A stretch of DNA of 50,279 bases from Promethearchaeota archaeon (GTDB lineage Archaea; Asgardarchaeota; Lokiarchaeia; Sigyniarchaeales; SOKP01). A program made the translations under genes and the position numbers. The stretch lies in assembly GCA_048941285.1 (NCBI GenBank), contig JBHLNS010000022.1, positions 1 to 50,279 of the forward strand, in the 5' to 3' direction. The stretch's first letter is position 1. Each line of letters opens with the position of its first letter. The notes under the pieces are model-generated. The model was not told where the DNA came from, did not search any database, and saw only the letters and a program-made list of their open reading frames with translations. Of this stretch, positions 1,047-25,836 are shown in pieces.

Positions 1047-3455
1047 TTAAATAAAACATGACAGATCTTTTTGAAGAGATTTCTTATTATAATCTGAAGT
1101 CAATAATTCCTCAAGTTCAGGGAATTCAAAAGGAAAAATGTTTTCAAAAGCTCTTTTCAGTAGTTCAACATACTTTTTTCGATCATATTCATGTTTCTTT
1201 TCATCATATAAATCTGAAAGGACTACTTTTTTTTCAGGGAAATTCGGATCAGCATCAGCATTAAGAATAATATATCTCACGTTCTTTCCTGCGGACGCTA
1301 TAACACCCGATCGTTCTAATTGTCTAGCAGCAACTGCTTGATATGAATTTACCTTATATTGATTTGGACTTCGAGAGATCTTTTGTTTTATCGTGAGTTC
1401 ATCACGGGAAACTTTTCCGGAGTACACCCTCTCCACATATTCAAAGAGTTTTTTCTTTGCTTCCGGTATTCTTTTTTTAAACTCATCAACTGTCATTGCT
1501 CCTTGAAATATATCAATAAAAGCATACTGTGCATCTTTCACAATTTTGGGCATATCTCTACGCCGTACTTCAATGCCTCTGACCTTTATCTCACCATCGC
1601 TTTTGATACCCCAATAATGACTAAGTGCAGGGACATCTGGCTCTGCTCGAGAAGGTAAAAAAACAATAGTATTAAAGCGCCCATCCCAACTCATTGGAAT
1701 ACTTGTGCTTTCGGAAATTTCTTTTGCAATTTTCTTTGTAATTATTTCAAATTCCTCTGGAGTTCTTCCTTTTTTATCTTGAAGCCACATTGAATCAACA
1801 ATTCCATGAACAACTTTACAATTATAATTCTTCGCAATTTCAGCAGATCTCAATAAAAACTCACGAGCAAAAGCACAAACTGTTTGATGTGCCTCAATTT
1901 TGCCAAAACGAGCATTCTTGAATCCAAGATATCCGAAACTTACAACAAGCACCCATTTCAAAGCAATATCCGTGAATTTATAGCGAAGATCATCATGTGT
2001 CTTATTATATTCTTTGCACTCTAAACGTTTTCTAAGGGGGAGGCTTATCGATTTTGATATTATACCCTCCCTTTTTGTGCATATATGGAAATTAAGACCC
2101 GGCACTTTAATGCCCATTCCATCGTCCTTGCAACACTTGCAGTTAATTGTTTCTGAAGAAATGTTAAAATTTGCCATTAAAGATGGATACATTGAAGAAA
2201 AATCCAATTCTACAACTTGATCGAAAACACCGATTAAAGGTTCAAATATATGACCGCCCCGATCATTTGTGATTAAGTCTATACAGTTTCGAAAACCTTC
2301 TGGGCTTTTCTTGAAAGGCGGGATAAGATGATCTAGTTTATATGCATTATAGTATTGTATCGATTGCAGGGCACCACCAATTGTAACTCTACATAATCTC
2401 TGCATAGGGACCCGAGACACCCTTGCAACTTCAATAACTCCGGGAATATTACCTTCACTAAAATGTAGACTGCCATAAGTCGTAGTGTCTAAATGAAAAC
2501 GCCCCGTAAAATAGACTTGTGTTTTAGAACGTCGCATTATTATTCCGTAAGACATGTAATGATCTGAGTTTCCTGATAGATTAAAGATACATTTCCTAAG
2601 TGGTGTTCTAGTGCGAGAAAAATATATATCCTTTGACACTCGATTCGCTGACGCTCGCGCAGCTAAGTAAGGAAATACAAATTCATCTCCTCCGCGTGTT
2701 AATATAATGTCAGGATCTAATCTTTCAATCACCTTACTAATTGCTTTGATTGTTTCACCTTCATCAGCCTTATCAATTAGGATCTTTCTCTTTCTCTGTC
2801 CATCTGCTCTTGGGATATTGGCTTTCTCATCCTTTTCAACAATACTGACTTCTGCATATAGTAGAGGATCATTGAAATAAGCTTTCATTCCACGCTGTCG
2901 TATTTTAATATCTAGCCACACAGCTTTCAGAGGCGGTAAATCATAAAATAATTCTTCATTGTCATCATTTAATTCTAATGATATCAGGCGCATTATTGAA
3001 GCACCAACTCTTCCCTTATTCTCAACTTTGACCCTGAAACTGCAAAGAGACATCGGAAACAAGTCATTTACATAGAAATACATCTGAGAAATTGGAAGAT
3101 CAGTATTATACAAAGTAAAAAGACCGATTTCATCGATTTCGTTAATTGTCTTCTTAAAAACTGAAGGCTTCACAACAGAAACTCCAAGAATTTTTGTTTT
3201 TTTGTGATCCTCCAGCTTCACATATTTTTCACAAATTCTTACATCCTCTACATTATGGTGGGATTTAATAATCTGTTTTAGTCTTTTAAAGTCTTTACCA
3301 ACATGTTTTTTTGGCACAGCGAAAAATTCGGGGCAGAAGTCATGAAAAATTTTTATGACTTTTTGCTCTTTTGCTTTTTTGACCCAGAGAATTACTCCAT
3401 TGCTATATGTGGAAACATCTAAAAGCCAACCATCAAATTGTTCATGAAAGTACAA
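1047..3455 (-). CDS. polB2: Family B DNA polymerase, PolB2 (Dpo2-like) group
   Basis: Motif A DFSSMYPS is intact. Motif B is KWVLVVSFGYLG (canonical KxxxNSxYG). Motif C is HGIVDS (canonical YGDTDS), the PolB2 signature. Exo motifs are degenerate (LDIK; GGDEFVFPYL). C-terminus QKDLSCFI. Confidence 0.92.
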   Translation of the reverse strand: MYFHEQFDGWLLDVSTYSNGVILWVKKAKEQKVIKIFHDFCPEFFAVPKKHVGKDFKRLKQIIKSHHNVEDVRICEKYVKLEDHKKTKILGVSVVKPSVFKKTINEIDEIGLFTLYNTDLPISQMYFYVNDLFPMSLCSFRVKVENKGRVGASIMRLISLELNDDNEELFYDLPPLKAVWLDIKIRQRGMKAYFNDPLLYAEVSIVEKDEKANIPRADGQRKRKILIDKADEGETIKAISKVIERLDPDIILTRGGDEFVFPYLAARASANRVSKDIYFSRTRTPLRKCIFNLSGNSDHYMSYGIIMRRSKTQVYFTGRFHLDTTTYGSLHFSEGNIPGVIEVARVSRVPMQRLCRVTIGGALQSIQYYNAYKLDHLIPPFKKSPEGFRNCIDLITNDRGGHIFEPLIGVFDQVVELDFSSMYPSLMANFNISSETINCKCCKDDGMGIKVPGLNFHICTKREGIISKSISLPLRKRLECKEYNKTHDDLRYKFTDIALKWVLVVSFGYLGFKNARFGKIEAHQTVCAFAREFLLRSAEIAKNYNCKVVHGIVDSMWLQDKKGRTPEEFEIITKKIAKEISESTSIPMSWDGRFNTIVFLPSRAEPDVPALSHYWGIKSDGEIKVRGIEVRRRDMPKIVKDAQYAFIDIFQGAMTVDEFKKRIPEAKKKLFEYVERVYSGKVSRDELTIKQKISRSPNQYKVNSYQAVAARQLERSGVIASAGKNVRYIILNADADPNFPEKKVVLSDLYDEKKHEYDRKKYVELLKRAFENIFPFEFPELEELLTSDYNKKSLQKDLSCFI

Positions 3456-3458
3456 TTT

Positions 3459-3731
3459 CTATTCTGTTCCTTTTATCGTTTCTTCTAATTCTTTTACTTT
3501 TCCTTCTAGCATTTCGATTTTCTTTTCTTGTTCGACCGCAAAAGAAATAAACAAAACTTCTGACAACATTGGACGCGCACTCATGCTGCCGGCATCTGCA
3601 TGAATTCGCGCAAAATTCATCAATTTATCGAATATCTTCTGCTCTTCCGGGCGCAGTGCTCTTTTGAAATCCTTCCAGCTTTCAATCTCATGTTCTAAAG
3701 CAGGTCGAAAAGAGGGTACAGTTCTTCCCAT
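3459..3731 (-). CDS. Small PolB2-associated helical protein (arCOG07300-like)
   Basis: MGRTVPSFR...W..FKRALR.EE...FDKL...AR..A.A pattern of the small gene usually found directly upstream of polB2. Stop is 3 nt from the polB2 start. ATG 3731 preferred over the track's 3800. Confidence 0.8.
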   Translation of the reverse strand: MGRTVPSFRPALEHEIESWKDFKRALRPEEQKIFDKLMNFARIHADAGSMSARPMLSEVLFISFAVEQEKKIEMLEGKVKELEETIKGTE

Positions 3732-3779
3732 ATCTGACACTTTGATTTTGAGTAAAATCCAAAAAAGAAAGTATTTCGG

Positions 3780-3814
3780 CAAATTAAAACAAAAATACAA
3801 TACAAATTTTCTGA
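3780..3814 (-). promoter_or_regulatory. Shared upstream motif, copy 1 (upstream of small partner-polB2 operon)
   Basis: caaattaaaacaaaaatacaatacaaattttctga matches 7167-7201 at 28/35 positions without gaps. Confidence 0.6.
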
Positions 3815-3880
3815 TTTTTTTAAAAGGAAAATAATAATAGTTCGGAAAATATTACTATATAGAATTTATGAGATGTTTAG

Positions 3881-4849
3881 ATGTACAAAATAATCGATTC
3901 TCTTTGTTATGTACCTACTGAAGAGGTATTTGTAGATCTTCTTGTTTCATTACCACCTCAAATGGGACGATATCTTAAGGACGTTTTTGGCCCAAGAGTA
4001 GCACCTCTTTTAGGGATCACATCAGAAGAGCTATATAGAATGAAATCAACATTGAATAGCTCCGAACTTATAGAAGCAATAAAACCATTTTTACCTAAAA
4101 TAAGAAAATTAACTATGTCTATTGAAAAATTTGTCGATCAACTCAATAAAATGGGAGTTGAAAAAGCCGTCATTTTCAATTTAGATGAAGAAACTCCAAG
4201 TGGAATAAAAGGATTACCAAATGATTATTATGCTGAAATAGTACGACAGTTTCCAGATAAATTTATAGGTTTTGCTGGAATTGACCCATTAAAAAAAAAG
4301 AAAGCCCTAAAAGAGATTAGAAGGTCATATGATTTAGGCCTTAGAGGGATTGCAATTAGGCCATTTATGTTTCAAATTCCACCATCACATAAAAAAATGT
4401 ATCCTATATATTCCACTTGCATAGAGCTTGATATTCCGATATGGTTTCATATATCAATCAATTATTCTACTAATACAATGGAAGTGGAACGCCCCATTTA
4501 TCTTGATATTGTTGCCCAAGATTTTCCTGAATTAAAAATGATTGCTGGACATGGGGGTTGGCCTTGGATTAATGAAATGATAGCAGTTGCCTGGCATAAT
4601 CCTAATATTTATATTGATATCGCTTCTTACCTACCTAAATATATTGGTATGAAGGGAACTGGTTGGGAACCTCTTATCCATTATGGTAATTCGGTTTTAC
4701 AAGATAGGATTCTATTTGGATCTACCTGGCTGTTCATGGGAATGTCAATAAAAGAATTAGCTGATGAGGTTATGAAGTTGCCGTTGAAAGAAGTAGTGAA
4801 GAAAAAATGGCTTTATGGCAATGCAGCTAAACTTCTTGGTATAAACTGA
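3881..4849 (+). CDS. Amidohydrolase family (amidohydrolase_2-like) protein
   Basis: FIGFAGIDP, IPIWFH, IAGHGGWPW, NIYIDIA, RILFGS and LYGNAAKLL motifs. Confidence 0.85.
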   Translation: MYKIIDSLCYVPTEEVFVDLLVSLPPQMGRYLKDVFGPRVAPLLGITSEELYRMKSTLNSSELIEAIKPFLPKIRKLTMSIEKFVDQLNKMGVEKAVIFNLDEETPSGIKGLPNDYYAEIVRQFPDKFIGFAGIDPLKKKKALKEIRRSYDLGLRGIAIRPFMFQIPPSHKKMYPIYSTCIELDIPIWFHISINYSTNTMEVERPIYLDIVAQDFPELKMIAGHGGWPWINEMIAVAWHNPNIYIDIASYLPKYIGMKGTGWEPLIHYGNSVLQDRILFGSTWLFMGMSIKELADEVMKLPLKEVVKKKWLYGNAAKLLGIN

Positions 4850-4863
4850 TCAGATTTAATAGA

Positions 4864-4974
4864 TTATTCTTCTTTTTCATTGCACTCTGGACAAAATATC
4901 AGTTCAAAATCTTCTAAATCACTTCTCCAAACATATATCATACCATTTCCTTCACACAATTCGCATCTTTTCAC
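4864..4974 (-). CDS. 36-aa zinc-finger microprotein (not in ORF track)
   Basis: GTG start with AAGGAGA just upstream. Translation MKRCELCEGNGMIYVWRSDLEDFELIFCPECNEKEE has CxxCxGxG and CPxC. Confidence 0.65.
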   Translation of the reverse strand: MKRCELCEGNGMIYVWRSDLEDFELIFCPECNEKEE

Positions 4975-5204
4975 ATCTCCTTTAGGATATACAAAATAAT
5001 TCGTAACGATAACTCACTTCCTTTTTTATTCATGATATTTGAACTTGAAAATTCCATCATTATACTATAAAATACCCTATTTAAGTGTTTTCATAAAGTT
5101 TGAAATTTGTAAAGATATTATGTTAATAATTATTGGAAAAAAATTATTAAATAAGACTGAAACTTATTAATTTATTAGAAAAAACCGAATATACCAGTAA
5201 AGTA

Positions 5205-5621
5205 ATGACTGAAAACAACAATGAATGGCATGCCCCCTGTGGAATTTTTTGCAAGAGATGTCCAGGAGTAGAATCTTTTGGATGTAAAGGATGTAGAGCT
5301 CAAGAGGGGCAAATTCATAAATTTCCCGTATGCAAAACTTATAAATGTGTTACAAGGAAAGGATTTGAATTTTGCTATGAATGTAATGAATTCCCATGTG
5401 AAATGTTACAACCAATTGTAAAATTTGAAATCTTTGAGCCTCACAATTCAAAAGTTTATAACTTGGTTATGATTCAAAAATATGGTTTAGAAGAATGGAA
5501 TAAAATCTGTGATGAAAAATCTAATCTTTATTATCAAGGAAGGAAAATTCGATATGGTGGTGATCCTTTGACACTTGGGCAAAAAGATCCTAGTATATAT
5601 AAAAAAAAGAAAAAAGAATAA
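5205..5621 (+). CDS. DUF3795-like Cys-rich protein
   Basis: APCGxxCxxC...CxGC...CxxxxC...FCYECNEFPC pattern. Confidence 0.75.
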   Translation: MTENNNEWHAPCGIFCKRCPGVESFGCKGCRAQEGQIHKFPVCKTYKCVTRKGFEFCYECNEFPCEMLQPIVKFEIFEPHNSKVYNLVMIQKYGLEEWNKICDEKSNLYYQGRKIRYGGDPLTLGQKDPSIYKKKKKE

Positions 5622-5720
5622 TAAATATTTTTCAATATAATTTTTAAAATAAATATTCCCTATAATACCTCGACCAAAACTAATCTTAAAACAAATTTGT
5701 TTCTTTTATTAAAAAGGATA

Positions 5721-6038
5721 CTAATGCATTGATTTTTTCTCAGCTTTTTCAACTCTTTCAGCTTCTTTTTCAGCTTCCTTGTCAGCTTTCTTCTTATCTT
5801 TTTTAACTTTATCGGCTTTTTTTTTAACTTCTTCGTCGTCTCTCTTGAGTCCATCAGCAACCTTCCTTGATTCCTTAGTTTTTTCTGTTGCTGCCTTCTC
5901 ATGTTTTTCATAATCTTCTTTCGTTGCTTCCCTAATAGCTTTAGCTCCACATTTTTCACAATATAATGTGTCTGTATGAGTAAATTCTCCGCATGAATCA
6001 CAGATTAATTTAAATGTTTTTCTAAATGTCTTATCCAA
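5721..6038 (-). CDS. Zinc-ribbon protein with Lys/Glu-rich helical tail
   Basis: CDSCG...CEKCG followed by a charged helix. TTG start with GTGAGGA upstream. Confidence 0.7.
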   Translation of the reverse strand: MDKTFRKTFKLICDSCGEFTHTDTLYCEKCGAKAIREATKEDYEKHEKAATEKTKESRKVADGLKRDDEEVKKKADKVKKDKKKADKEAEKEAERVEKAEKKSMH

Positions 6039-6396
6039 AATTCCTCACATCTTTTATTTTTTTTTTCCAGTACTAATCTTACTAATATTTACTTTATTTA
6101 AAGGCTATTTATACTTATATATTTATATGTGTGGTAAAGATTAATTCACATTTTATTAATAGATAGAAATCATAGAAATGTAGCTTAATATAGAGGAAAA
6201 TTAACCCCAATAGACTCAAGTTGTATTCTTAAAGAATTTTTCTTATTTTGCGATTTCCCCTTTTTTTAAAAAAAAAAATTAGGAGATTTAACTGGTAGCA
6301 AGAAAGTAGAAGTATTTAAAATTTCAGAGATTCAATAGATCTTGGATCTTTTATAATCATATTCGCTGCAGTTTTACTAGTGTCAATATTAAAGAT

Positions 6397-7149
6397 TTAC
6401 ACCCAATAATCTAATGTAGTATTTTTTAAAGGAATCTTTTTCTTGGTCGTGCGAGGTTTCCACTTTAGCAACCGATTTTCTGGAAGATATGGGTGTTGTA
6501 CGAGAACATATTCTACATACCTATCATCATCATTTATCTTCACGAGCACATTTCCAAAATGAGAAAGTATTTTTCCACCCTTTGGTCTAAAAAGGGAATT
6601 ATCGTGTAAAGGTGCTGTTATAATAATGAGAGGATTTGCTTTCCAGAGTATCTGTTTAATCCCGTCTACTATCCTTAGCAAATCTTCAAATGTCTGTCTT
6701 TCATAACCTTCAAATAGAGTCGTAATCCCAGAGATTAATACGACTTTCACATCTTCAAGTATAGAAAGTCTATTCTCCAAAATCTCGACCATTTGATCCC
6801 ATGTAAACGCTCGTGAAATAAGAATGCTTTCTAGCACTTTCCGTGGTGACAGATTCTGGGATACTGCAAACTTACTTACATTATAAGGATTAAAACGGTT
6901 ATTTCCATCGATAAAAGCAACTCTAATACCCTCCCCGAGTCCTCCATTGGTAAAAGCTTTCTGGGCAATAACGGCAGTGGTTAACAAAATATTGTTCGTT
7001 AGCTTCTTATCCCCATAGAGTAAATACACCAAATCACGATGAAAGCCCCCAGAAAGCAACTCATCTAACGTGCTATCCCCACTTGAAATAAGAGAGATAT
7101 TACTGTTCCTTTTATATAATGTGAATCCTGTCTGATTCAGAGTCATCAT
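6397..7149 (-). CDS. Inactive RecA/RadA-superfamily protein (PolB2-cassette type)
   Basis: SSGDSTLDELLSGG, then Walker A reduced to YGDKKLT. AFIDGNNRFNPY and ILISRAFT present. Walker B region is VLISG. C-terminus NTTLDYWV. Confidence 0.85.
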   Translation of the reverse strand: MMTLNQTGFTLYKRNSNISLISSGDSTLDELLSGGFHRDLVYLLYGDKKLTNNILLTTAVIAQKAFTNGGLGEGIRVAFIDGNNRFNPYNVSKFAVSQNLSPRKVLESILISRAFTWDQMVEILENRLSILEDVKVVLISGITTLFEGYERQTFEDLLRIVDGIKQILWKANPLIIITAPLHDNSLFRPKGGKILSHFGNVLVKINDDDRYVEYVLVQHPYLPENRLLKWKPRTTKKKIPLKNTTLDYWV

Positions 7150-7166
7150 ATGAAGTAACTATTCTT

Positions 7167-7201
7167 CAAAATAAAACAAAGATACACCGACAATTTTCTG
7201 A
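7167..7201 (-). promoter_or_regulatory. Shared upstream motif, copy 2 (upstream of radA-like gene)
   Basis: caaaataaaacaaagatacaccgacaattttctga, 17 nt upstream of the ATG at 7149; 28/35 identical to 3780-3814. Confidence 0.6.
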
Positions 7202-7484: not shown

Positions 7485-9194
7485 ATGATGAGTTATAGTA
7501 GTCGTTTTTGGAAAGATAAATATGATAAAGGAATTACTGATTTGAATCCTAAAGAATTCGATTTTTCTTTTACTGAAATTACCAGAAAAACATTTGAAGA
7601 ACTCCCTGAAAAACTAGCAATTGCGTTCTACGGTACGGAAATCTCGTATGGAGAATTGGATAAATTATCGAATGAATTTGCTCATATGTTAATTGAGAAT
7701 GGAATGAAGAAAGGAGATGTACTGGGAATAAATACTGCGAATATTCCCGAATATATAATTGGGATATTGGGTGCTTTAAAAGCAGGAATTATTGTTTCAG
7801 GAGTTTCTCCACTTCTTTCAGCCGTTCAAATAGAATATCAGTTAAATGATTTAGGTGCTGAAGGAAAGCAAGTTGCTTTGCTTACATTGGATGCTATTTT
7901 TGCAGGTCATATAACAAAGATTTATACCAAGATTCCTTCATTAAAACTTGTGATTACAACTTCAGTTGGTGGGTTTATGCCCAAAATGCTTGCAAAGCTA
8001 GGGAAACTAGTAGGAAAGATCCCCAAAGGAAAGGTAACTCCTTTAGAAGGAGTAAATGTGCTTGAATATCATAAACAAGTCAAAGGGAAATATCCTGATG
8101 ACCTACCAAATGCAAAAGTAAATCCAAATGATATTGCATTCATCCAGTATACTGGAGGTACTACTGGTCCCCCAAAAGGAGCGAAGTTAAGTCACAGAAA
8201 TTTCGTAGCAGATATAAAAATCTTTCAGCATTGGCTTAGTTGGGAGTTTGGAACTGGTTTTGGATTATCAGGGTTTCCATTTTTCCATATAGCAGGATTA
8301 TTTACTTGCGCAAATGTCATAATGCTAGGCTGGAGTCAGATCTTAATCCCTAATCCAAGAGACACTGACCATATTATTAAAGAAATGCTGAAATATAGGC
8401 CAACTGTCTTAGCGAACGTACCCACATTGTATCAAATGTTGATAAAGAATCCAAAATTTACAAAAATCGATAAAGATATGATAGATTATGCTATTTCAGC
8501 AGCAGCACCTTTTCCAAAAGAGTCACAGGAGATATTTGAGAGCATAATTGGTGAAGGCAAACTTATAGAATTATATGGTATGACTGAAACTTCACCTTTA
8601 ACAATTGGTAATCCTTCAAAAGGAAAGAAAAAACTAGGACACATTGGCCTACCTTTTCCTAATGTGGAATTTAAGCTCGTAGACCCAGATTCGGGAAAAG
8701 AAGTACCTTTAAATGAAGCTGGAGAAATTTGTGTGAAAGGTCCGATGGTGATGGAGGGATATCATAACAAACCAGATGAAACTAAGAAAGCTATTGATTC
8801 AGAGGGCTATATGCATACCGGTGATGTTGGGATTATGGATGAAGAAGGATATGTGAGAATTGCAGATCGTACAAAGGATATGATTATTGTTGGTGGGTTT
8901 AAAGTTTTCTCAGCAAAATTGGAAGATACATTGACAAAGCATCCTGCTATTGAAATGGTAGCCACAATTGGCATTCCAAATCCTGATAGACCTGGATCTG
9001 AAATAGTTAAGGCCGTAATACAAATTGCGCCAGATTATGAATATGAAAATGAAGAGGCATTAAAAGAAGAGATTTTGGCATTTGCTAAGAAAGAATGTGC
9101 ACCTTATGAAGTTCCAAAAATAATAGAATTTACATCAGAATTACCACTTACCGTAGTGGGGAAAGTTGATAAGAAGCTCTTGAGAGATCATTAA
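7485..9194 (+). CDS. fadD: Long-chain fatty acid--CoA ligase (AMP-binding)
   Basis: QYTGGTTGPPKG, YGMTE, TGDVG, DRTKDMI and PLTVVGK motifs. Confidence 0.9.
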   Translation: MMSYSSRFWKDKYDKGITDLNPKEFDFSFTEITRKTFEELPEKLAIAFYGTEISYGELDKLSNEFAHMLIENGMKKGDVLGINTANIPEYIIGILGALKAGIIVSGVSPLLSAVQIEYQLNDLGAEGKQVALLTLDAIFAGHITKIYTKIPSLKLVITTSVGGFMPKMLAKLGKLVGKIPKGKVTPLEGVNVLEYHKQVKGKYPDDLPNAKVNPNDIAFIQYTGGTTGPPKGAKLSHRNFVADIKIFQHWLSWEFGTGFGLSGFPFFHIAGLFTCANVIMLGWSQILIPNPRDTDHIIKEMLKYRPTVLANVPTLYQMLIKNPKFTKIDKDMIDYAISAAAPFPKESQEIFESIIGEGKLIELYGMTETSPLTIGNPSKGKKKLGHIGLPFPNVEFKLVDPDSGKEVPLNEAGEICVKGPMVMEGYHNKPDETKKAIDSEGYMHTGDVGIMDEEGYVRIADRTKDMIIVGGFKVFSAKLEDTLTKHPAIEMVATIGIPNPDRPGSEIVKAVIQIAPDYEYENEEALKEEILAFAKKECAPYEVPKIIEFTSELPLTVVGKVDKKLLRDH

Positions 9195-14126: not shown

Positions 14127-14681
14127 ATCTCTGAGCAAATAAAGAAATCATTTATCTACAAGCTTTGTATCGTAGGTGATGGCGGCGTAGGGAAAACTTC
14201 TATGGTCCTCCGCTACTGTGAGAACACTTTTAAAGAAAATTATATTATGACAATTGGGTCTAACTTTTCTACAAAGCAGGTTGACCTAGAGGAGTACCCT
14301 TCATATCTTATTAAGCTTCAATTATGGGATTTGGCAGGACAGAAACATTTTAGTTTTGTTCGTCCACCTTTTTATCGCGGAAGTAGCGCAACTATATATA
14401 CGTTTGATCTTACAAGAAGAAGTTCATTTCAAAATATCTTAAATTGGAAAAGTGAAGTAGAAAAAGTAATCGGTGATGGCAAACCATGCATTTTAGTGGG
14501 AAACAAAATAGATTTGGCAGAACAGGGTCAAAGGGAAGTTGGGACTGGAGAGGGCGAAGCACTAAAGGAAGAACTACACGCGATAGCCTATATTGAAACT
14601 AGTGCAAAAGATAACATTCAAGTAGAGCCAGTGTTTAAGGATTTAACTCTTGCTATTTTAGAGAATACTAAAAAGATATAG
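14127..14681 (+). CDS. Rab/Ras-like small GTPase (eukaryotic signature protein)
   Basis: The reading frame extends upstream of the track ATG (14202) through G1, KLCIVGDGGVGKTS. G2 TIG, G3 WDLAGQ, G4 GNKID and G5 ETSAK follow. Start inferred at ATC 14127. Confidence 0.9.
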   Translation: MSEQIKKSFIYKLCIVGDGGVGKTSMVLRYCENTFKENYIMTIGSNFSTKQVDLEEYPSYLIKLQLWDLAGQKHFSFVRPPFYRGSSATIYTFDLTRRSSFQNILNWKSEVEKVIGDGKPCILVGNKIDLAEQGQREVGTGEGEALKEELHAIAYIETSAKDNIQVEPVFKDLTLAILENTKKI

Positions 14682-16103: not shown

Positions 16104-19100
16104 ATGAGATATATGGAAGAAAAAAGAGAGGAAAAGTTTGATCAGGAATTCGATGATGAGGAGTTAGATTTAACTAAAGACGCTTTTTTTACGGATTTAA
16201 TGGATATGGAAGAAGAAATTGCCACTGAAGCTTATGAACTCGTGGAGCATGCTATTAATCTGATACGAACCCAATATTATGATGATAGTATTGAAATTTT
16301 ACGTCAAGCAATTGGATTATATACACAAATTAATCGAACAGAAGAAATTGAAGCCATAAATAATAAAATTTCAGAAGTTTATATACTTAAAGAAGAAGCT
16401 TTTAGAGAAATAGAAGTAAAACCAGAAAAAAAAACCGAAGTTATAATTGAGCCTGAATCGATCGATCAAACTGAAATTGAAGCTGATTTGATACAAAAAG
16501 CAAATCAATTAATTATTGAGGCTCATGAATTGTCTAATAACAATCAATTTGAGGAGGCTCTTGATAAGTATGATGAAGCTGAAAAAATCCTTGAAGAAGT
16601 TCACAGATCTGATGAAATAGAAAGATTATATTTATTAATTGAAGAATGTTATAACAAAAAAGCAGAATATTTGCGTAGTATAAAAGTAGAAGGACCAAAA
16701 GACTTAGTAGAAACAGAAGCAGTTCCAATAAAAGATAAAGAAAAAGAAAAAAAACTAAAGCAGTTTCTTGAAGCTAAAAAGCGGGAAGAAGAGATATCAT
16801 CTAAAGCATATGAGTTATTAGAACAAGCAGTAGAATTAGCAAAAATGAATGAATATGATGAAGCTATTAACTTATATAATAAAGGAGTAAACTTATTTGA
16901 AGAATTGAATTGGACATATGAAGTTAAAAGAATTCGAGATACTATAGAGCTACTAGAAAAAGAAAAGATTAAATACTTTGAAGAAGTTAAAAAAGAACGA
17001 GTAGAAATTGGGCAAAAAATAGAAAGCGAATTCCATAAAGGAAAATTGATTGATGATCAAGTTAAAGAAATAAGTGAACAAGAAAAAATTGCCCAAATGG
17101 AAAGAGTGAGGGGGATAGAACTTCAAAAAATGGAACTAGAATTTTTTAAAGCCCAAATTGATAATATGGCTACAGAAGCTGCTAGAATGGGTCGAGAGTA
17201 TGAATTAGCAATGCATAAAGCGATTAAAGAAGGAAAATTATTAAAAGAGTGCATTTATCCTAAAGTAATTGAAATGTATAAAAAAATAAAAGAATTATTG
17301 CTTGATAAAGGTTGGAATAATGAAGCTGCAATCTATGATAATACAATAAATGTATATATCCAAAAATTCGAACAAGACCAAAAAATTCGACAAATTGAAG
17401 CAGATAAGATAATAAAACAAAAAGAAACAGAAGAAATGTTAAAGATGGAGAGTGTCGATAAAGATAAAGTTGTGGATGAAAAACAGCGAGCATTATCTGA
17501 AGAAGAACGTCAAAAACAACTCGAAATCCAAAATTTAAGAAATCAAATTGATGATAAGACAAAAAGAGCTGAACGGTTAGCTAGAGAATATGAAGTAGCA
17601 TTGCGACAAGGGAAATTTGAATTAAAATGCCCATATCCTGAAATTATTAATCTTTTTGAAGAAGCTAAACAAATAGCCTTAGAGAGAGGTTGGGAGACTG
17701 ATGTTATAATTTTTTCAAGTCAAATATATACTTATAAACAAAAATTAGAAAAAGATAATCGGTTGCGGCAAATTGAGGCTGATAAAGTAAGGAAGCAGGA
17801 AGAGATTGAAGAATTATTTAAAATTAAAGAAGAACCGATTACCGATTCAGATGCTGAAAAATTAAAAACTCTACAAGAACAAAGAGAATTAGAAAAGCAA
17901 AAAGAAGAGTTTGATAGTGTTATTGATGTAATGATAAATCGAGCTGAATCTATGGCAAAAGAATATGATTTAGCTATGAAAAAAGCCATAAAAAAAGGGA
18001 GATTAGCAGAAAAGCCCCCTTTTTTGAAAATTATTGGTATCTATGAAAGTATAAAGCGAATGTTGATTGAGAAAGGAAGAAAAGAAGAAGCAGAGGCATA
18101 CACAAATCAAATCAATTATTATACACAAAAACTAGTACAAGATAATAAATTACGAGAAGTAGAAGCTAAAAAAGCTCAAAGAGAGAAAGCACTTGAAGAA
18201 ATGCATAAAATGGGACAAGAAATAGGAATAGATGAAATAAAATTGGCAACTATTGAAAGAAAAAAAGAGGATGAGGATTTTGAAAAATATATTTCTGAGA
18301 ATGTAAGTATTGCTGAAAAAATGGTACGAGACTTTGAAATAGGAAAGAGAAAGGCTTACAGAGAAGGAAAAGTCCTTGAAAGCACTCCATATAAAGAAGT
18401 AATAGAAATTTATAAACAAATTCGAGATAGGGTTTATGCAAGGGGATGGAGGGAACAAGCAGAAATATATACAAATCAAATTAAAATTTATCAGGGCAAA
18501 CTGGATAAACATGAAAAGCTTCTTGAAGTGGAGATTCAAAAAGCTCAAAGAGAAAAAGAAATTGAAGAAATGCATAAAATGGGTAAAGGAGTAGAAATAG
18601 ATGAAAAAAGATTGGAAACTATTGAAAGAAAAAAGGAAGAAGAAGATTTTGAAAAACTTATTTCTGAGAATGTAAATATCGCTGAAAAAATGGTACGGGA
18701 CTATGAAATAGAAAAGAGAAAGGCATACAGAGAAGGAGTTATCCTCGAAAATACTCCATATAAAGAAGTAATAGAAATTTATAAACAAATTCGAGATAAG
18801 GTTTATGCGAGGGGATGGAGGGAACAAGCAGATATATATACAAATCAAATTAAAGTTTATCAGGATAAGCTGGATAAACATGAAAAGCTTCTTGAAGTGG
18901 AGATTCAAAAAGCTCAAAGAGACAAAAACATCGAAGAAATGCATAAAATGGGAAAGGGAGTAGAAGTAGATGAAAAAAGATTGGAAACTATTGAAAGAAA
19001 AAAGGAAGAAGAAGATTTTGAAAAACTTATTTCTGAGAATGTAAATATCGCTGAAAAAATGGTACGGGACTATGAAATAGAAAAGAGAAAGGCTTTCAGA

Positions 19101-21722
19101 GAAGGAAAAATCCTTGAAAATACCCCATATAACGATGTGATAGAAATTTATAAACAAATTCGAGATAAGGTTTATGCGAGGGGATGGAGAGAACAATCAG
19201 AAATATATGCAAATCAAATTAAAATTTATCAGGATAAGCTGGATAAACATGAAAAGCTTCTTGAAGTGGAGATTCAAAAAGCTCAAAGAGATAAAAATAT
19301 TGAAGAAATGCATAAATTAGAGAAGATTGAGTTTGATCAAAAAGATTTAAGCATTATACAGAAAAAAAAAGAGGAAAAAGAGTTTGAAAAGTACATTACA
19401 GAAACATTAAATAAAGCTGAAAAATTAGAAAGAGAATTTGATTCCGCTATGAAAAAAGCGATCAAAAAAGGTACTATAATAGAAAAAACACCCTATGCTA
19501 AAATCATTGAAATATATAGCCAAATTAAAGATAAACTTGAAGAAAAAGGCTGGACAGAACAATCACAAATATATAAAAACCAAATTAAAATTTACCGAGA
19601 AAAGTTAGATAAACATGAGAAATTACTAGAAACAGAACAACAAAAAGCTCAAAGAGAAAAAGAAATTGAAGAAATGCACAAGCTAGGCAAAAAAGAAGCC
19701 ATACCTGATAAGTCAGAAAAAATTAAAGAACTTGAAGCAGGAGAAAAGGAAGAAGATATTTTACTAGATAAAGCTATGGATCTTATAGACGATGCAGAAA
19801 AAGCAGTAAAACGTTATGAATTAAGCATTAGGAAAGATATTTTAGTATATGAAAGCCCTTATGACAATGCAATATCAAATTATGAGAAAGCTCGTGGAAT
19901 ATTTCAAAAAATCGGATGGAATGAAGAGGCTAGCCGTTTAATTAATACAATTAAATTTTATATGGATAAAAAAGAGAAAGATGATAAACTCAGAGAGATT
20001 GAGCAAAAGAAATTGAAAGAGCCTTCTATTGAGTTAATAGTAGCTGATATTAAACCTGATAAGGAATTTATTGATAGACAAAAAAGATTACTGGAAATTG
20101 AACAAAAACAGAAAGAAGGAGATAAAGTTGCTTCTGAAATATTAAATAATATTCAAAATGCGGAGAGAATGGCACAGGAATATGAAATAAAAATAAAAGG
20201 TGGTATATTTGATTACGAGGCTCCTTATGAGAAAATAATCGAAATTTATCGAAATGCGAGGAAAAGGTTCGAAGAAATTAATTGGAAAGAAGAATCTGCG
20301 AAATTAAAAAACACAATTAATTTTTATAAAGAAAAATTGGTTAAGGATAAGAAAGTACGTGCACTAGAAGCTGAGAAGATTAAAATAAGAGAAGAAGAAT
20401 TGTTATTACAACAAAGATTAGTGGAAGAAGCAAAAATTGAACAAGAGAAATTGATACAAAAACGAAAAGAATTGCTAGATTTAAAACAGGAGCGCGTAGC
20501 GCAATTTGAAACGCAAAAAGACAAGGCATTTCGCTTAATGGATCAAGCTAAACGTGAATTAAGACAAAACTATTTTGATAAAGCGATTGAATGTTATAAT
20601 GAAAGTGAGAAGATATTTATTAATATTAACTGGCAAGAAGGAATTAAAATGGTTCATGAATCAGTTGCAATGATCACTAGCAAGAAAAAAGAATTTGAAC
20701 TGGAAAAACAAAAAATCGAAGAACAGAAAATTGAAAAAATATTAATTGAGGAAAAATTGGAAGAACAATTAGCTGAAGCTCAAATTTTAAGAAAAAAGCA
20801 ACAAGAAGAGAAAAGAAAAGAACTTTTGAAGGTTCAAAAAGAAAAGGAAAAAGAACGTCAAGTATCAGAAGAAGCTTATGAACTTTTAGAAGAAGGTACT
20901 GCTTTAATGGACATTAAAAAATTCAATGAAGCTTATGAGAAATTTATTGCTGCTCGGGAATTATTCGAGAAAATAGGATGGCATCGAGAAGTTTCACGTA
21001 TAAATAATGAACTCTTGTTCAAACTTAAAAGGGAACAGAAACAAGCAGAGACTCTAGAAGAAATTAAATTACAAAAAATTGAAGAAGAAAAACAAATGGC
21101 CTTATTAAAAGAAGAAGCTAAAAGAGAAAGAGAAGAAGAAGCTAAAAGAAAAAAAGAAGAAAAACGCAGATTTGTTAAAGAAGAAACTCTTAGAAAAATT
21201 TCTGCTAAATTAGATAAAGCAAGTAAATTAATCGAGAAATATCAATATAATGAGGGGATCTTAATGATGCTAGAAGAGACTCAACGATTAAAAAGTCTTG
21301 GCCAAGAGGAAGAAATTTTAAAAATCAATGAGCAAGTTGAAAATATAAAAAGCGAAGCTGATATACCAATAATTATTTTAGAAATGTCTGAAGGTGAATT
21401 AGAAAATAAAAGCGTCAAAGCGGCATATAAAGCACTAGATAATGCTCAAGGAGCATTAGTTGAAAATCAAAATAAAAGAGCCATTTCAGAATTAAACGAA
21501 GCTAATTATCACCTTGGCAAATTAAAGATTGGAAAGAAATTTGTTAAAGAAATAAATGAAAAAATTACTGATATTAGAGAAAAACTTGGTGTAGAGCCAA
21601 GTAAAGAAAAAATTACAATTTCATCTGAAGATGAGAAAGAAAAACTTAAAGCTAGAATAGCAGCAAGAAGAGAAGAGAGAAGAAAAAAGGTTTTTGATTT
21701 ATTAAAGAAAGATAGAGAATAA
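16104..21722 (+). CDS. Giant (1872 aa) all-helical repeat protein with MIT/TPR-like units and coiled-coil linkers
   Basis: Uninterrupted E/K-rich ORF. Recurrent AE..(A/V)R(E/D)YE...PY..(V/I)IEIY...GW units and AYELLE.A......Y.EA...Y units. Confidence 0.85.
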   Translation: MRYMEEKREEKFDQEFDDEELDLTKDAFFTDLMDMEEEIATEAYELVEHAINLIRTQYYDDSIEILRQAIGLYTQINRTEEIEAINNKISEVYILKEEAFREIEVKPEKKTEVIIEPESIDQTEIEADLIQKANQLIIEAHELSNNNQFEEALDKYDEAEKILEEVHRSDEIERLYLLIEECYNKKAEYLRSIKVEGPKDLVETEAVPIKDKEKEKKLKQFLEAKKREEEISSKAYELLEQAVELAKMNEYDEAINLYNKGVNLFEELNWTYEVKRIRDTIELLEKEKIKYFEEVKKERVEIGQKIESEFHKGKLIDDQVKEISEQEKIAQMERVRGIELQKMELEFFKAQIDNMATEAARMGREYELAMHKAIKEGKLLKECIYPKVIEMYKKIKELLLDKGWNNEAAIYDNTINVYIQKFEQDQKIRQIEADKIIKQKETEEMLKMESVDKDKVVDEKQRALSEEERQKQLEIQNLRNQIDDKTKRAERLAREYEVALRQGKFELKCPYPEIINLFEEAKQIALERGWETDVIIFSSQIYTYKQKLEKDNRLRQIEADKVRKQEEIEELFKIKEEPITDSDAEKLKTLQEQRELEKQKEEFDSVIDVMINRAESMAKEYDLAMKKAIKKGRLAEKPPFLKIIGIYESIKRMLIEKGRKEEAEAYTNQINYYTQKLVQDNKLREVEAKKAQREKALEEMHKMGQEIGIDEIKLATIERKKEDEDFEKYISENVSIAEKMVRDFEIGKRKAYREGKVLESTPYKEVIEIYKQIRDRVYARGWREQAEIYTNQIKIYQGKLDKHEKLLEVEIQKAQREKEIEEMHKMGKGVEIDEKRLETIERKKEEEDFEKLISENVNIAEKMVRDYEIEKRKAYREGVILENTPYKEVIEIYKQIRDKVYARGWREQADIYTNQIKVYQDKLDKHEKLLEVEIQKAQRDKNIEEMHKMGKGVEVDEKRLETIERKKEEEDFEKLISENVNIAEKMVRDYEIEKRKAFREGKILENTPYNDVIEIYKQIRDKVYARGWREQSEIYANQIKIYQDKLDKHEKLLEVEIQKAQRDKNIEEMHKLEKIEFDQKDLSIIQKKKEEKEFEKYITETLNKAEKLEREFDSAMKKAIKKGTIIEKTPYAKIIEIYSQIKDKLEEKGWTEQSQIYKNQIKIYREKLDKHEKLLETEQQKAQREKEIEEMHKLGKKEAIPDKSEKIKELEAGEKEEDILLDKAMDLIDDAEKAVKRYELSIRKDILVYESPYDNAISNYEKARGIFQKIGWNEEASRLINTIKFYMDKKEKDDKLREIEQKKLKEPSIELIVADIKPDKEFIDRQKRLLEIEQKQKEGDKVASEILNNIQNAERMAQEYEIKIKGGIFDYEAPYEKIIEIYRNARKRFEEINWKEESAKLKNTINFYKEKLVKDKKVRALEAEKIKIREEELLLQQRLVEEAKIEQEKLIQKRKELLDLKQERVAQFETQKDKAFRLMDQAKRELRQNYFDKAIECYNESEKIFININWQEGIKMVHESVAMITSKKKEFELEKQKIEEQKIEKILIEEKLEEQLAEAQILRKKQQEEKRKELLKVQKEKEKERQVSEEAYELLEEGTALMDIKKFNEAYEKFIAARELFEKIGWHREVSRINNELLFKLKREQKQAETLEEIKLQKIEEEKQMALLKEEAKREREEEAKRKKEEKRRFVKEETLRKISAKLDKASKLIEKYQYNEGILMMLEETQRLKSLGQEEEILKINEQVENIKSEADIPIIILEMSEGELENKSVKAAYKALDNAQGALVENQNKRAISELNEANYHLGKLKIGKKFVKEINEKITDIREKLGVEPSKEKITISSEDEKEKLKARIAARREERRKKVFDLLKKDRE
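18171..19680 (+). repeat. Intragenic tandem repeat, 369-bp (123-aa) period
   Basis: AAAGCTCAAAGAGA...GAAGAAATGCA anchors at 18171, 18540, 18909, 19278 and 19644. The first three units are near-identical and the fourth is diverged. Confidence 0.9.
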
Positions 21723-23769: not shown

Positions 23770-24732
23770 ATGTTAGAGATTCCTTGGACTGAAAAATATA
23801 GGCCAACCACATTTGATGAAATCGTCAGTCAGAATATCGCAATTAACAATCTTAAAAAATTTGTAAAAACTACAAATATCCCTCATTTAATTTTTGCTGG
23901 TCCTGCGGGAACTGGAAAAACGAGTACTGCTTTAATAATAGCTAGATCTTTTCTTAAAGATGAACAATTAGATACAAATCTTTTAGAATTGAATGCTTCT
24001 GATACAGTAAGAATTGATTTTGTAAGAAACGTTCTTAAGAATTTTGTTAATCAAAGTTTAGTAAAAGATGGATCTCTAAAATTTGTTCTTCTTGATGAAG
24101 CTGATAATATACCGGGACAAGTCCAGCAAGCGCTTAGAAGAATAATAGAAAAAACTTCAAATAATATAAAGTTCATACTTTTATGTAATTATATAAATAG
24201 AATAATTGATCCAATTGTATCACGATGCGCTGTCTTTAGATTTGTTAATTTACCTAAAGAAAAAATAATTGAAAGATTAGAAGATATCTCAAAAAAAGAA
24301 AAATTGAGAATACCTCCTGATAAAGCAAAAGAATTCTTTGAAAAATTGTATTTTATTTCAGGGGGGGATTTGAGAAAAGCTATCAACACATTTCAAATGT
24401 CAGTTGCGCTTGAACTCTTGGATAATTTAGATATCAATGAAATTTTAAAGATTTCAGGATTTCTAGATGAAAAGACTCTTAATAACCTAATTTCAGCTCT
24501 TAAGAGCAAAGATATTATGAAATCTGGAGAGATAATAGATTCTATTGAAATTCTTGATAGTCGAAATTTTATAAGACAAATTTTAGAAATTTTGCCATCA
24601 TTAAATTTGACTCCTGTAAAAATATCTGATTTAAGAGCTTATTTTGGAGAAATTGATTATAGGATAAGTCAAGGTGCAGATGAACAAATACAGATATCCG
24701 CTCTATTAGCAATGATTATAGAGAGCATTTAA
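23770..24732 (+). CDS. rfcS: Replication factor C small subunit
   Basis: PWTEKYRP, GPAGTGKT, LELNASD, LDEAD and SRC. Confidence 0.95.
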   Translation: MLEIPWTEKYRPTTFDEIVSQNIAINNLKKFVKTTNIPHLIFAGPAGTGKTSTALIIARSFLKDEQLDTNLLELNASDTVRIDFVRNVLKNFVNQSLVKDGSLKFVLLDEADNIPGQVQQALRRIIEKTSNNIKFILLCNYINRIIDPIVSRCAVFRFVNLPKEKIIERLEDISKKEKLRIPPDKAKEFFEKLYFISGGDLRKAINTFQMSVALELLDNLDINEILKISGFLDEKTLNNLISALKSKDIMKSGEIIDSIEILDSRNFIRQILEILPSLNLTPVKISDLRAYFGEIDYRISQGADEQIQISALLAMIIESI

Positions 24733-24749
24733 TCTTAAATTATTATTTC

Positions 24750-25823: not shown

Positions 25824-25836
25824 ATGAGCGAGGCAA

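Follow-up and report, generated by a model that had tools for sequence, protein, structure and literature searches.

The window analysed in this study, a stretch of 50,279 nucleotides (nt) from a Promethearchaeota archaeon, contains between positions 1047 and 7201 three genes of the minus strand, which encode the B-family DNA polymerase PolB2, its small partner PPB2 and iRadA, an inactive homolog of RadA/Rad51. Very probably, these are the genes of the archaeal three-subunit complex for translesion synthesis (TLS) by PolB2, the "PolB2 mutasome", in an Asgard genome of the Lokiarchaeia type; the genes are split in the family of genomes to which the window belongs and would be under common promoter control. 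The interpretation of such genes as a mutasome is already published: the operon link between PolB2, PPB2 and iRadA was described in 2014 (PMC4104785), and a heteropentamer of the three proteins was modelled in 2025 and likened to Pol V (PMC11791011), so the candidate mutasome put forward in the first-pass annotation of this DNA is not a new idea. What the present analysis adds is a series of Asgard genomes that documents how the operon broke up, a pair of matched promoters that are unique in their genome and conserved in the family, and clamp-box-like tails on both of the large subunits.

In the mechanism that we propose, PolB2 would be the catalytic subunit, without proofreading and with an I-V-D motif C, like Dpo2 of Sulfolobus. 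PPB2 would be the small helical subunit, which in published models forms a trimer with its MGRT arm between PolB2 and iRadA, and iRadA would be an ATPase-dead RadA bound to PolB2. An ancestral iRadA-PPB2-PolB2 operon would have been pulled apart by insertions at the iRadA/PPB2 junction, giving two transcription units: iRadA alone, followed by a run of T, and PPB2-PolB2. A promoter architecture of ~35 nt present on both units would serve as a shared site of control through which the subunits stay balanced, and docking of the complex on the sliding clamp would be achieved by the PCNA-box-like C termini of PolB2 and iRadA. The components of the system are located as follows.

1047-3455, minus strand: polB2, B-family DNA polymerase of the PolB2 type, 802 residues, one intact open reading frame (ORF) with a TTG start and its stop at 1047-1049
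1050-1073, minus strand: PCNA-box-like motif QKDLSCFI, the C-terminal 8 residues of PolB2, fitting Q-x-x-[LIMV]-x-x-[FYW]-[FYWLIVM]
1791-1808, minus strand: polymerase motif C, HGIVDS, residues 550-555; P. furiosus PolB has YIDTDG at the aligned position
2187-2213, minus strand: polymerase motif A, VELDFSSMY, which retains the catalytic Asp418; PolB chains in the PDB have LDFIALYPS / LDFRALYPS at the aligned position
2664-2693, minus strand: Exo II equivalent, GGDEFVFPYL, residues 255-264, from the HMMER alignment to 4ahc/3a2f
2901-2918, minus strand: Exo I-like stretch, WLDIKI, residues 180-185, read from the translation, outside the HMMER alignment
3459-3731, minus strand: ppb2 (arCOG07300 family), 90 residues; the ORF runs 3459-3800, and the ATG at 3731 is most likely the true start
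3780-3814, minus strand: promoter element 5' of ppb2-polB2, TCAGAAAAT-N7-GTAT-N5-TTTTAAT, ~83 nt before the ATG
6397-7149, minus strand: iRadA, inactive RadA/Rad51 homolog, 250 residues, assigned from the ORF, Pfam Rad51, the paralog alignment and synteny
6400-6423, minus strand: PCNA-box-like motif NTTLDYWV at the C terminus of iRadA, with Asn for the usual Gln, fitting [QN]-x-x-[LIMV]-x-x-[FYW]-x
6727-6744, minus strand: Walker B equivalent, VVLISG, with Asp replaced by Ser; five paralogs have the Walker B Asp
6991-7014, minus strand: Walker A equivalent, GDKKLTNN, without GK[ST]; five paralogs all have G-x4-GKT
7167-7201, minus strand: promoter element 5' of iRadA, TCAGAAAATTGTCGGTGTAT-N5-TTTTATTTTG, with its core 50 nt before the ATG

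The first-pass annotation had described three same-strand genes for a PolB2, a small helical protein and a RecA-fold protein, and all three are present at these positions. The stop codon of ppb2 and the start codon of polB2 are 3 nt apart, and iRadA is separated from this pair by 2665 nt that contain three unrelated genes. The term split used in that annotation applies to the cassette; PolB2 itself is encoded by a single intact ORF.

The product of polB2 matches the Pfam domains DNA_pol_B (1.3e-25) and DNA_pol_B_exo1 (3.6e-10), and its best NCBIfam models are the generic "type B polymerase" models NF004416 and NF004418, both with scores under the cut-off. It was aligned by HMMER to the PolB chains of Pyrococcus in the PDB (4ahc/3a2f; E 2.4e-37), and its conservation was followed in family relatives, a set of 80 loci in which PolB2 is 59-94% identical and the neighbouring genes were located by tblastn. 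In motif C, the first Asp of the DxD pair is replaced by Ile (HGIVDS as compared with YIDTDG), and HGIVDS is invariant in 66/66 orthologs of PolB2. The motif A Asp is retained within the stretch LDFSSMYPS, and Asp418 of motif A, Lys500 of motif B and Asp554 are invariant in an alignment of 46 PolB2 sequences. In the Exo II equivalent, the Asn and the second Asp of NGDSFDFPYL are gone. The Exo I consensus is DxE, and by direct reading of the translation we equate it with WLDIKI, which would have D-I-K where DxE has Glu. Judged on these two stretches, the active site of the proofreading exonuclease appears to be lost, and the earlier description of a polymerase with HGIVDS as motif C and a dead exonuclease is borne out by the alignment. 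In PolB2 proteins a conserved D(K/R) loop follows a beta-alpha motif that binds iRadA (PMC11791011); candidates for this loop are PRADG (residues 215-219, with P215, A217 and D218 invariant) and ILIDK (residues 225-229). In the genome of the window, polB2 is the only polB gene adjacent to ppb2; this genome also has a second polB, broken up at the ends of contigs, and a gene for a Y-family polymerase that is a possible inserter alongside PolB2 as extender.

Most PolB2 proteins have a substituted first Asp in motif C, which reads IID in S. islandicus (PMC11791011), and Dpo2, which is free of exonuclease activity, actively extends termini that are mismatched or opposite a lesion and is encoded by the only polymerase gene of Sulfolobales that is induced by damage (PMC8764526). 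Carried over by analogy from Sulfolobales, damage induction would be expected for the trio described here. Among the other polB2 loci, one (L136; G123:C2:286719-288986, minus strand) is a PolB2 match with one in-frame TGA, and genome G128 has only the C-terminal part of PolB2 (residues 335-786), on the strand opposite to iRadA-PPB2. Near-identical polB2 loci (L061, L066 and L075) occur in metagenome-assembled genomes (MAGs) with the labels Nanopelagicaceae bacterium, Nitrosopumilaceae archaeon and "bacterium"; the likely cause is mis-binning of Asgard contigs.

PPB2 begins with MGRTVPSFR, that is, with an MGRT arm that has Arg at positions 3 and 9. In PPB2, formerly arCOG07300, no other part is as well conserved or as central to function as this N-terminal "MGRT" arm with Arg3 and Arg9 (PMC11791011). 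A search among 1.84 billion representatives gave 806 relatives at E<=1e-3; from the best 150 of these, 86 that match the first residue of the query, together with the query, gave 87 rows with the consensus MGRTVPxFRxxLExE..W..FRRALR, in which G2 is invariant and M1 and T4 are conserved in at least 90%. The AlphaFold2 model is all-helical with a predicted local distance difference test (pLDDT) score of 94 and comprises helices at residues 8-17, 20-24, 28-43, 45-51 and 56-89, the last of which, a long C-terminal helix, would be compatible with a trimer. The fold search returned generic helical matches only, and no family match was found in the Pfam and NCBIfam libraries searched, of which the Pfam copy lacks PF26485.1; homologs of PPB2 in the protein database bear this accession, PF26485.1, as a precomputed Pfam assignment. 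PPB2 lies immediately 5' of polB2 in 73/73 related loci with at least 300 nt of flank. A subclade (L052, L054-L057, L062, L064, L066 and L071) has a TGT codon before GRT and an ATG before the TGT, and the predicted N terminus is MCGRT instead of MGRT in 5 of the 60 PPB2 ORFs called. Several of the family f2 genomes (G133, G135, G132, G134, G136 and G137) have 2-5 PPB2-like genes; none of these adjoins PolB2 where this could be checked, and a second type of copy begins MGRTIPSYR.

The 250-residue protein iRadA matches Pfam Rad51 (2.1e-14) over residues 16-146 only and begins at profile position 68 of the RadA model NF003301, without the N-terminal domain of RadA. The genome has five further ORFs of the Rad51 family, with scores of 320, 299, 235, 130 and 40 bits, to which iRadA was aligned. 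Where these paralogs have G-x4-GKT, iRadA has GDKKLTNN, as expected from the earlier description of a RecA-fold gene without a functional Walker A, and G-x4-GK[ST] is present in 0/58 orthologs. None of five distant iRadA-like proteins that were checked (from G129, G132, G137 and G123) has GK[ST]. On these sequence characteristics, the gene shows the features of iRadA as described in PMC4104785 and PMC11791011. The identification of the three genes as the PolB2 / arCOG07300 / RadA-like cluster, proposed in the first-pass annotation, therefore stands on the MGRTVPSFR start, the motif states and the synteny described below. Fragments of the 3' end of iRadA (query residues ~150-250) are present in four loci (L004:6788-7089, L008:7045-7146, L076:6863-6964 and L049:4884-5018), 0.6-1.4 kb downstream of an intact iRadA; they look like remnants of insertion or duplication at the iRadA/PPB2 junction.

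The gene order is conserved in the family. Where the upstream flank is 8 kb or longer, iRadA is upstream of polB2 on the same strand in 48 of 50 loci, and with a flank of at least 1.5 kb this is true of 60/66; the exceptions among the 50 are L046, which has a C-terminal piece of iRadA at the edge of the locus only, and L047. Co-occurrence of the radA-like gene with polB2 in relatives, which had been named as a check on the proposal, is thus found in the synteny survey. The gap between iRadA and PPB2, measured in 58 loci, is 42-7101 nt with a median of 2032: it is under 200 nt in 4 loci, 200-1000 nt in 13, 1-3 kb in 20 and over 3 kb in 21. Because separation by more than 200 nt is the norm in the family (54/58), the distance at this locus, which had been supposed to be unusual, is not so, and scattering is also common in the phylum. 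The contents of the gap were scored by the presence of the intervening genes of the window itself. The commonest occupant is the opposite-strand, Cys-rich DUF3795 gene (46/58 loci), found alone in 19 loci, with the amidohydrolase in 12 and with both the Zn-ribbon gene and the amidohydrolase in 8, plus 3 that also have an iRadA 3'-end fragment; 8 loci have other combinations, and in 8 none of the genes of the window was detected. The most divergent loci, L072 and L073, in which PolB2 is 59-60% identical, have a gap of 42 nt with GAGGTGA, a TTG start and no internal promoter. We read this arrangement as the ancestral state of the operon, and the iRadA/PPB2 junction behaves as an insertion hot spot. 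In the 19 loci where DUF3795 is the sole occupant detected, the intergenic region may be common to it and ppb2.

In the phylum as a whole, the PPB2 profile matches 254 of the 379 genomes with a completeness of 70% or more, and within the window's own family it matches 111/128. All three genes were surveyed in 40 chosen genomes, not a random sample, comprising 23 with a PPB2 match from families f2-f6 and 17 from other families. The whole trio was found in 26 of them and comprises three kinds of arrangement. (i) The trio is contiguous in 6/26 (G126, G138, G268, G002, G004 and G284). (ii) In G003 it is present with a 1.4-kb gap. (iii) In 19/26 at least one gene is elsewhere; this could be measured on a single contig in 5, while 1 (G128) is rearranged and 13 have the genes on different contigs. 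The five single-contig cases are as follows.

G129: PolB2 at 3.00 Mb, iRadA at 3.30 Mb, PPB2 at 4.18 Mb
G132: iRadA directly adjacent to PolB2, the nearer copy of PPB2 at a distance of 954 kb
G137: iRadA directly adjacent to PolB2, PPB2 at a distance of 375 kb
G123: iRadA and PPB2 are together, and PolB2 is 20 kb away
G318: PPB2 and PolB2 are together, and an iRadA-like gene is 229 kb away

The greatest spread of the trio is up to 1.18 Mb, and iRadA directly abuts PolB2 in G132, G134, G136 and G137. The assignments of iRadA in family f30 are less sure (E 1e-21 to 1e-34). According to the main text of PMC11791011 the trio genes are "only rarely interspersed" with others; the words Asgard and Lokiarch are absent from that main text.

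The two units have closely similar promoters. On the minus strand, the 35-mer on the iRadA side (7167-7201) is TCAGAAAATTGTCGGTGTATCTTTGTTTTATTTTG and that on the PPB2 side (3780-3814) is TCAGAAAATTTGTATTGTATTTTTGTTTTAATTTG. They are identical at 28/35 positions and have a common architecture, AGAAAAT-N7-GTAT-N5-TATA, with the same spacing in both sets of promoters. The earlier proposal that both halves of the cassette carry the same upstream motif is upheld by this identity and by the conservation of the element in relatives. On the iRadA side, the consensus in relatives is ATTTcAGAAAATTGTCGG.GTAtc.t.gTTTTaTTTTG; the core, with at most one mismatch, is present in 58/58 upstream regions, and in 46 of these the distance from its first base to the start codon is 47-51 nt. 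On the PPB2 side, the consensus is AAAT.AGAAAATtt..aatGTaTttTt.TTTtAAT, and the core is present in 73/74 upstream regions, mostly 61-94 nt before the ATG. Many of the PPB2-side sites in relatives read AGAAAATTTTCGATGTAT, and that of L068 reads AGAAAATTGTCGATGTATC, which is the iRadA type. The word "promoter" is absent from the main text of PMC11791011.

The element is unique in the genome of the window (3.55 Mb, ~30% G+C, in the motif scans). A structured pattern has two occurrences in it, the iRadA and PPB2 sites only; since the pattern was derived from those two sites, the count shows that there are no further copies and is not an independent probability. In an ungapped comparison of the iRadA 35-mer against each of the 7.1 million positions of the genome, the best match other than itself was the PPB2 site (28/35), followed by 14 sites at 24/35 with none at 25-27; by our own arithmetic, the genome-wide best match would fall within the 150 nt before the partner gene with a probability of ~2e-5. 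With a position weight matrix (PWM) of the iRadA type, the iRadA site scores 40.3 bits as compared with 16.4 for the next best in the genome; with a PWM of the PPB2 type, the corresponding values are 29.7 and 21.0 bits, with a continuous tail below. There is a single exact copy of the 13-mer AGAAAATTGTCGG in the genome, with 9 sites at <=1 mismatch and 96 at <=2. The heptamer AGAAAAT has 188 matches in 2037 upstream regions; as these are evenly spread, it is not a general positional promoter element. In the paired promoters, the base before AGAAAAT is TT in 18, CC in 16, CT in 10, TC in 8 and another combination in 5, an association that the kinship of the genomes makes uninterpretable.

The T/A-rich box 23 nt after AGAAAAT may be a TATA box, in which case the conserved element would span about -55 to -36 and overlap the position of the B recognition element (BRE). 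The TATA-like box of iRadA, at 7167-7175, is ~27 nt before the ATG, so iRadA is probably leaderless, and the PPB2-PolB2 unit, with its TATA-like box at 3780-3790, would have a leader of ~30 nt with a GTG/GGTG Shine-Dalgarno-like string. In other families, related-looking strings were found by eye, namely AAAAATTCTGTCGG (G132), AAGAAATTTGTCGCC (G134, G136 and G137) and GAAATGTCGG (G123), together with CCGACAA in reverse orientation upstream of iRadA in G129 and of PolB2 in G123; an ungapped 12-nt PWM run over 316 kb gave mixed matches. A gene for an 888-residue DEAD/Helicase_C/DUF5814 helicase (G000:C68:41210-43947, plus strand; locus L175/L178) has TAGAAAATTTGATTTGG and a T/A-rich box 71 nt upstream. 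It was considered as a member of the regulon and rejected: among 27 orthologous upstream regions, a similar element is present only in the close relatives L178-L181 and in L189 and L198.

Both large subunits end in motifs that resemble the PCNA-binding (PIP) box. The canonical PIP pattern lies within the last 20 residues in 57/66 orthologs of PolB2, and a PIP-like pattern within the last 14 residues in 52/58 orthologs of iRadA; both motifs are present in the same genome in 39/52. In the genome of the window, the FEN1-like protein ends in QVSLDDFF and the other PolB in IKKMDAFF, and iRadA of G123 ends in QRNLNFWL plus 3 residues. Such tails on PolB2 and iRadA would dock the complex on PCNA. Clamp motifs have been described in iRadA or PolB2, "rarely in both" (PMC11791011).

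Complex formation was predicted for PolB2(1-420) with iRadA, each with its own alignment (46 and 43 rows). The interface score ipSAE is 0.58 (0.62, 0.55 and 0.58 in the individual runs) as compared with 0.01 for the best control, and the runs have at least 89% contact agreement and a partner pLDDT of at least 79. In the benchmark, the ipSAE mark was reached by 116/157 solved complexes and 2/215 mismatched pairs; scores of <=0.60 were obtained for only 18 of the passing solved complexes and for both of the passing mismatches. The prediction weakly supports binding of PolB2 to iRadA in this genome, and likeness to Rad51-Rad51 or BRC-type interfaces may contribute to the score. Formation of the complex by all three proteins is suggested by this score in combination with the published models. 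Of the earlier proposal of a co-regulated, PCNA-docked complex, the shared promoters and the PCNA-box-like tails have been found, and the predicted PolB2(1-420)-iRadA fold lends it weak support. Because the motif is on no other gene and is not shown in other families, co-regulation of the iRadA and PPB2-PolB2 units is something that we infer.

PolB2 is responsible for damage-induced mutagenesis in Sulfolobus, and to our knowledge the three-protein complex has so far only been modelled. The mutasomes of S. islandicus and of other archaea and bacteria resemble the present system in having the same three families, a dead exonuclease, Ile for the first Asp of motif C (IVD here, IID there), a PPB2 with MGRT and Arg3/Arg9, an iRadA without the ATPase residues and the N-terminal domain, the order and orientation iRadA-PPB2-PolB2, and C-terminal motifs that resemble clamp-binding sequences. 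They differ in that here 2665 nt and three genes separate iRadA from PPB2, in two units with look-alike promoters, in that the window ORFs scanned include no orc1/cdc6, SRAP or DUF72 gene, and in that the joint presence of clamp-box-like motifs on PolB2 and iRadA, found here in 39/52 genomes, is rare according to PMC11791011.

Among more distant systems, ImuA-ImuB-DnaE2 combines a damage-tolerance polymerase with a co-encoded RecA-like protein that lacks normal function and an accessory protein. The parallel that the first-pass annotation drew with it holds as an analogy and goes no further: DnaE2 is a C-family polymerase and PolB2 a B-family one, so the polymerases are not homologous, ImuB is a dead Y-family polymerase, there is no counterpart of PPB2, and no DnaE2 or ImuB gene was found in the scanned region. 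E. coli Pol V (UmuD'2C-RecA) is described in PMC11791011 as similar in being a TLS polymerase with a RecA-family partner that is bound by means of an oligomerisation-like motif, and in having a small subunit that extends its N-terminal arm to the active site. It is unlike the PolB2 mutasome in that its catalytic subunit is Y-family, its RecA is an active ATPase shared with recombination and its UmuD' dimer is unrelated to PPB2, so that the likeness is one of analogy, not homology. Eukaryotic Pol zeta (Rev3-Rev7, Pol31/Pol32) is, according to the same source, likewise a multisubunit B-family extender with an inactive exonuclease, but its accessory subunits are different. The damage-response element of Orc1-2 in Sulfolobales is 5'-ANTTTC-3' (PMC6061795), and it is matched by ATTTTC, which forms part of the reverse complement of AGAAAAT; both elements are in promoters of PolB2 systems. 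The fit involves five specified bases in an AT-rich genome and the opposite orientation, the 20-bp Sulfolobus consensus is otherwise unmatched and there is no orc1/cdc6 gene nearby, so we regard the likeness as a lead only.

The following results weigh against the interpretation of the locus as a PolB2 mutasome under common control. With respect to the promoters, PWM scans of the genome gave no second strong site, and of the 18 next-best matches 13 are inside ORFs and 3 at promoter distance; the promoter of the Y-family polymerase is without the motif. The motif is on just two promoters and may be a duplicated promoter, not the site of a regulator. An 11-nt core PWM, trained on the window's family and tested on 24 promoters of separately encoded mutasome genes from families f2, f4 and f6 with 2036 upstream regions as the null, was not above background (Mann-Whitney p = 0.21 for the 24 promoters, p = 0.27 for 12 group medians, with 1/24 promoters at the 95th percentile). 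Agreement between the two 35-mers within a genome is 12-28 of 35 in relatives, which places the window at the top of the range. With respect to the proteins, NF004416 scores 308.8 bits on PolB2 as compared with a cut-off of 516, and the NCBIfam RadA model scores 57 bits (1.6e-15) on iRadA as compared with a cut-off of 259. The D(K/R) loop of PMC11791011 could not be placed with confidence in PolB2, D228 of ILIDK being conserved in less than 90%, and the C-terminal motif of iRadA has Asn, with Gln in 0/58 orthologs.

These promoter results bear on the alternative that the likeness has no regulatory meaning, the iRadA promoter, or part of it, having been copied before PPB2 at the split and the shared positions reflecting basic promoter needs, with neither a dedicated factor nor a coordinated switch. 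We consider this a serious possibility, although on balance a doubtful one. It would account for the presence of the pattern at two sites only, with no further gene, for the iRadA-type element before PPB2 in L068 (AGAAAATTGTCGATGTATC), for the much more degenerate element on the PPB2 side (29.7 as compared with 21.0 bits, where the iRadA side has 40.3 and 16.4) and for the fact that the motif is not shown in other families. It fits less well with the retention of AGAAAAT and GTAT at the same spacing upstream of a TATA-like box while their neighbours vary, in genomes whose PolB2 proteins are 59-94% identical. Nor does AGAAAAT behave as a generic part of promoters, since it has no positional preference in the 2037 other upstream regions, and upstream of iRadA there is almost no variation in TTGTCGG, a G+C-rich string in a genome with ~30% G+C.

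Two other readings concern the proteins. iRadA could be independent of PolB2 in this family, for example as a RadA-paralog recombination mediator, with the separation of the genes marking a lost partnership; its distance of 0.1-7 kb in 54/58 loci, the scattering of the trio in many genomes of the phylum and the weak fold support are in keeping with this. We think it improbable, as iRadA is upstream on the same strand in 48/50 loci, its dead ATPase site is kept in 58/58 orthologs together with the matched promoter, the fold score is 0.58 with controls at <=0.01, and iRadA abuts PolB2 in the four f2 genomes named above. That PolB2 is a catalytically dead scaffold or regulator, as proposed in 2014, is only slightly less remote. 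The Ile in place of the first motif C Asp and the loss of the exonuclease residues favour it, and such proteins are read as inactivated in PMC4104785; against this, Dpo2 of S. islandicus is robustly active despite its motif C substitutions (PMC8764526), the motif there being 401-IID-403 (PMC11791011), and Asp418, Lys500 and Asp554 are invariant in the 46 orthologs aligned here. The interpretation as a split PolB2 mutasome is the one that we retain.

The intervening genes are not counted as parts of the system; these genes, a run of T and the gene beyond iRadA are listed here.

3881-4849, plus strand: intervening amidohydrolase gene (Amidohydro_2), from Pfam
5205-5621, plus strand: intervening DUF3795 gene, from Pfam
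5721-6038, minus strand: intervening Zn-ribbon/Lys-rich gene, from Pfam
6268-6278, minus strand: run of 11 T, ~120 nt after the iRadA stop, read from the sequence
7485-9194, plus strand: AMP-ligase gene, divergent, beyond iRadA

The run of 11 T is a possible archaeal oligo-T terminator. A scan for bacterial-type promoters and terminators gave 32 sites as compared with 31.4 expected and no terminators, and is uninformative for an archaeon. The small Zn-ribbon protein, encoded downstream of iRadA on the same strand, has a long Lys/Glu-rich tail, and its relatives lie in the gap of 18/58 loci. Elsewhere in the window, an ORF of 1872 residues (16104-21722, plus strand) has no Pfam match at E<=1e-5, and three successive replication-factor-C-like AAA+ genes (Rep_fac_C, DNA_pol3_delta2 and AAA; 23770-27192, plus strand) are ~17 kb from the polB2 locus. 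The window also contains a TFIIB-family gene (43483-44376, minus strand) and a gene for a Ras-family small GTPase (14202-14681, plus strand); no orc1/cdc6, SRAP or DUF72 gene turned up among the window ORFs scanned. The closest matches in public databases come from MAGs that bear the labels Promethearchaeota, Promethearchaeia or Lokiarchaeota, plus a few with other submitter labels, in agreement with the Asgard origin supposed in the first-pass annotation.

We know of no Asgard transcription factor that controls damage tolerance. As a tentative proposal, an operator of ~18 nt, AGAAAATT[GT]TCG[GA][TA]GTAT, upstream of the TATA box might be bound by a dedicated factor that controls only the iRadA and PPB2-PolB2 promoters. 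This would constitute an Asgard switch for DNA damage or replication stress that let the operon break up without loss of the balance between subunits, the complex being assembled from unlinked genes coordinated in trans. If the motif is only a duplicated promoter, the locus is an ordinary one. The clamp-box-like tails on PolB2 and iRadA bear on how the complex sits on PCNA. The genomes of Asgard archaea form a natural series in what has been regarded as a "tight operon", from contiguous through interrupted to scattered over up to 1.18 Mb, and the partnership of the three proteins is therefore independent of co-transcription. The 35-nt element, found nowhere else in the genome, offers a bait for an Asgard transcription factor of damage tolerance.

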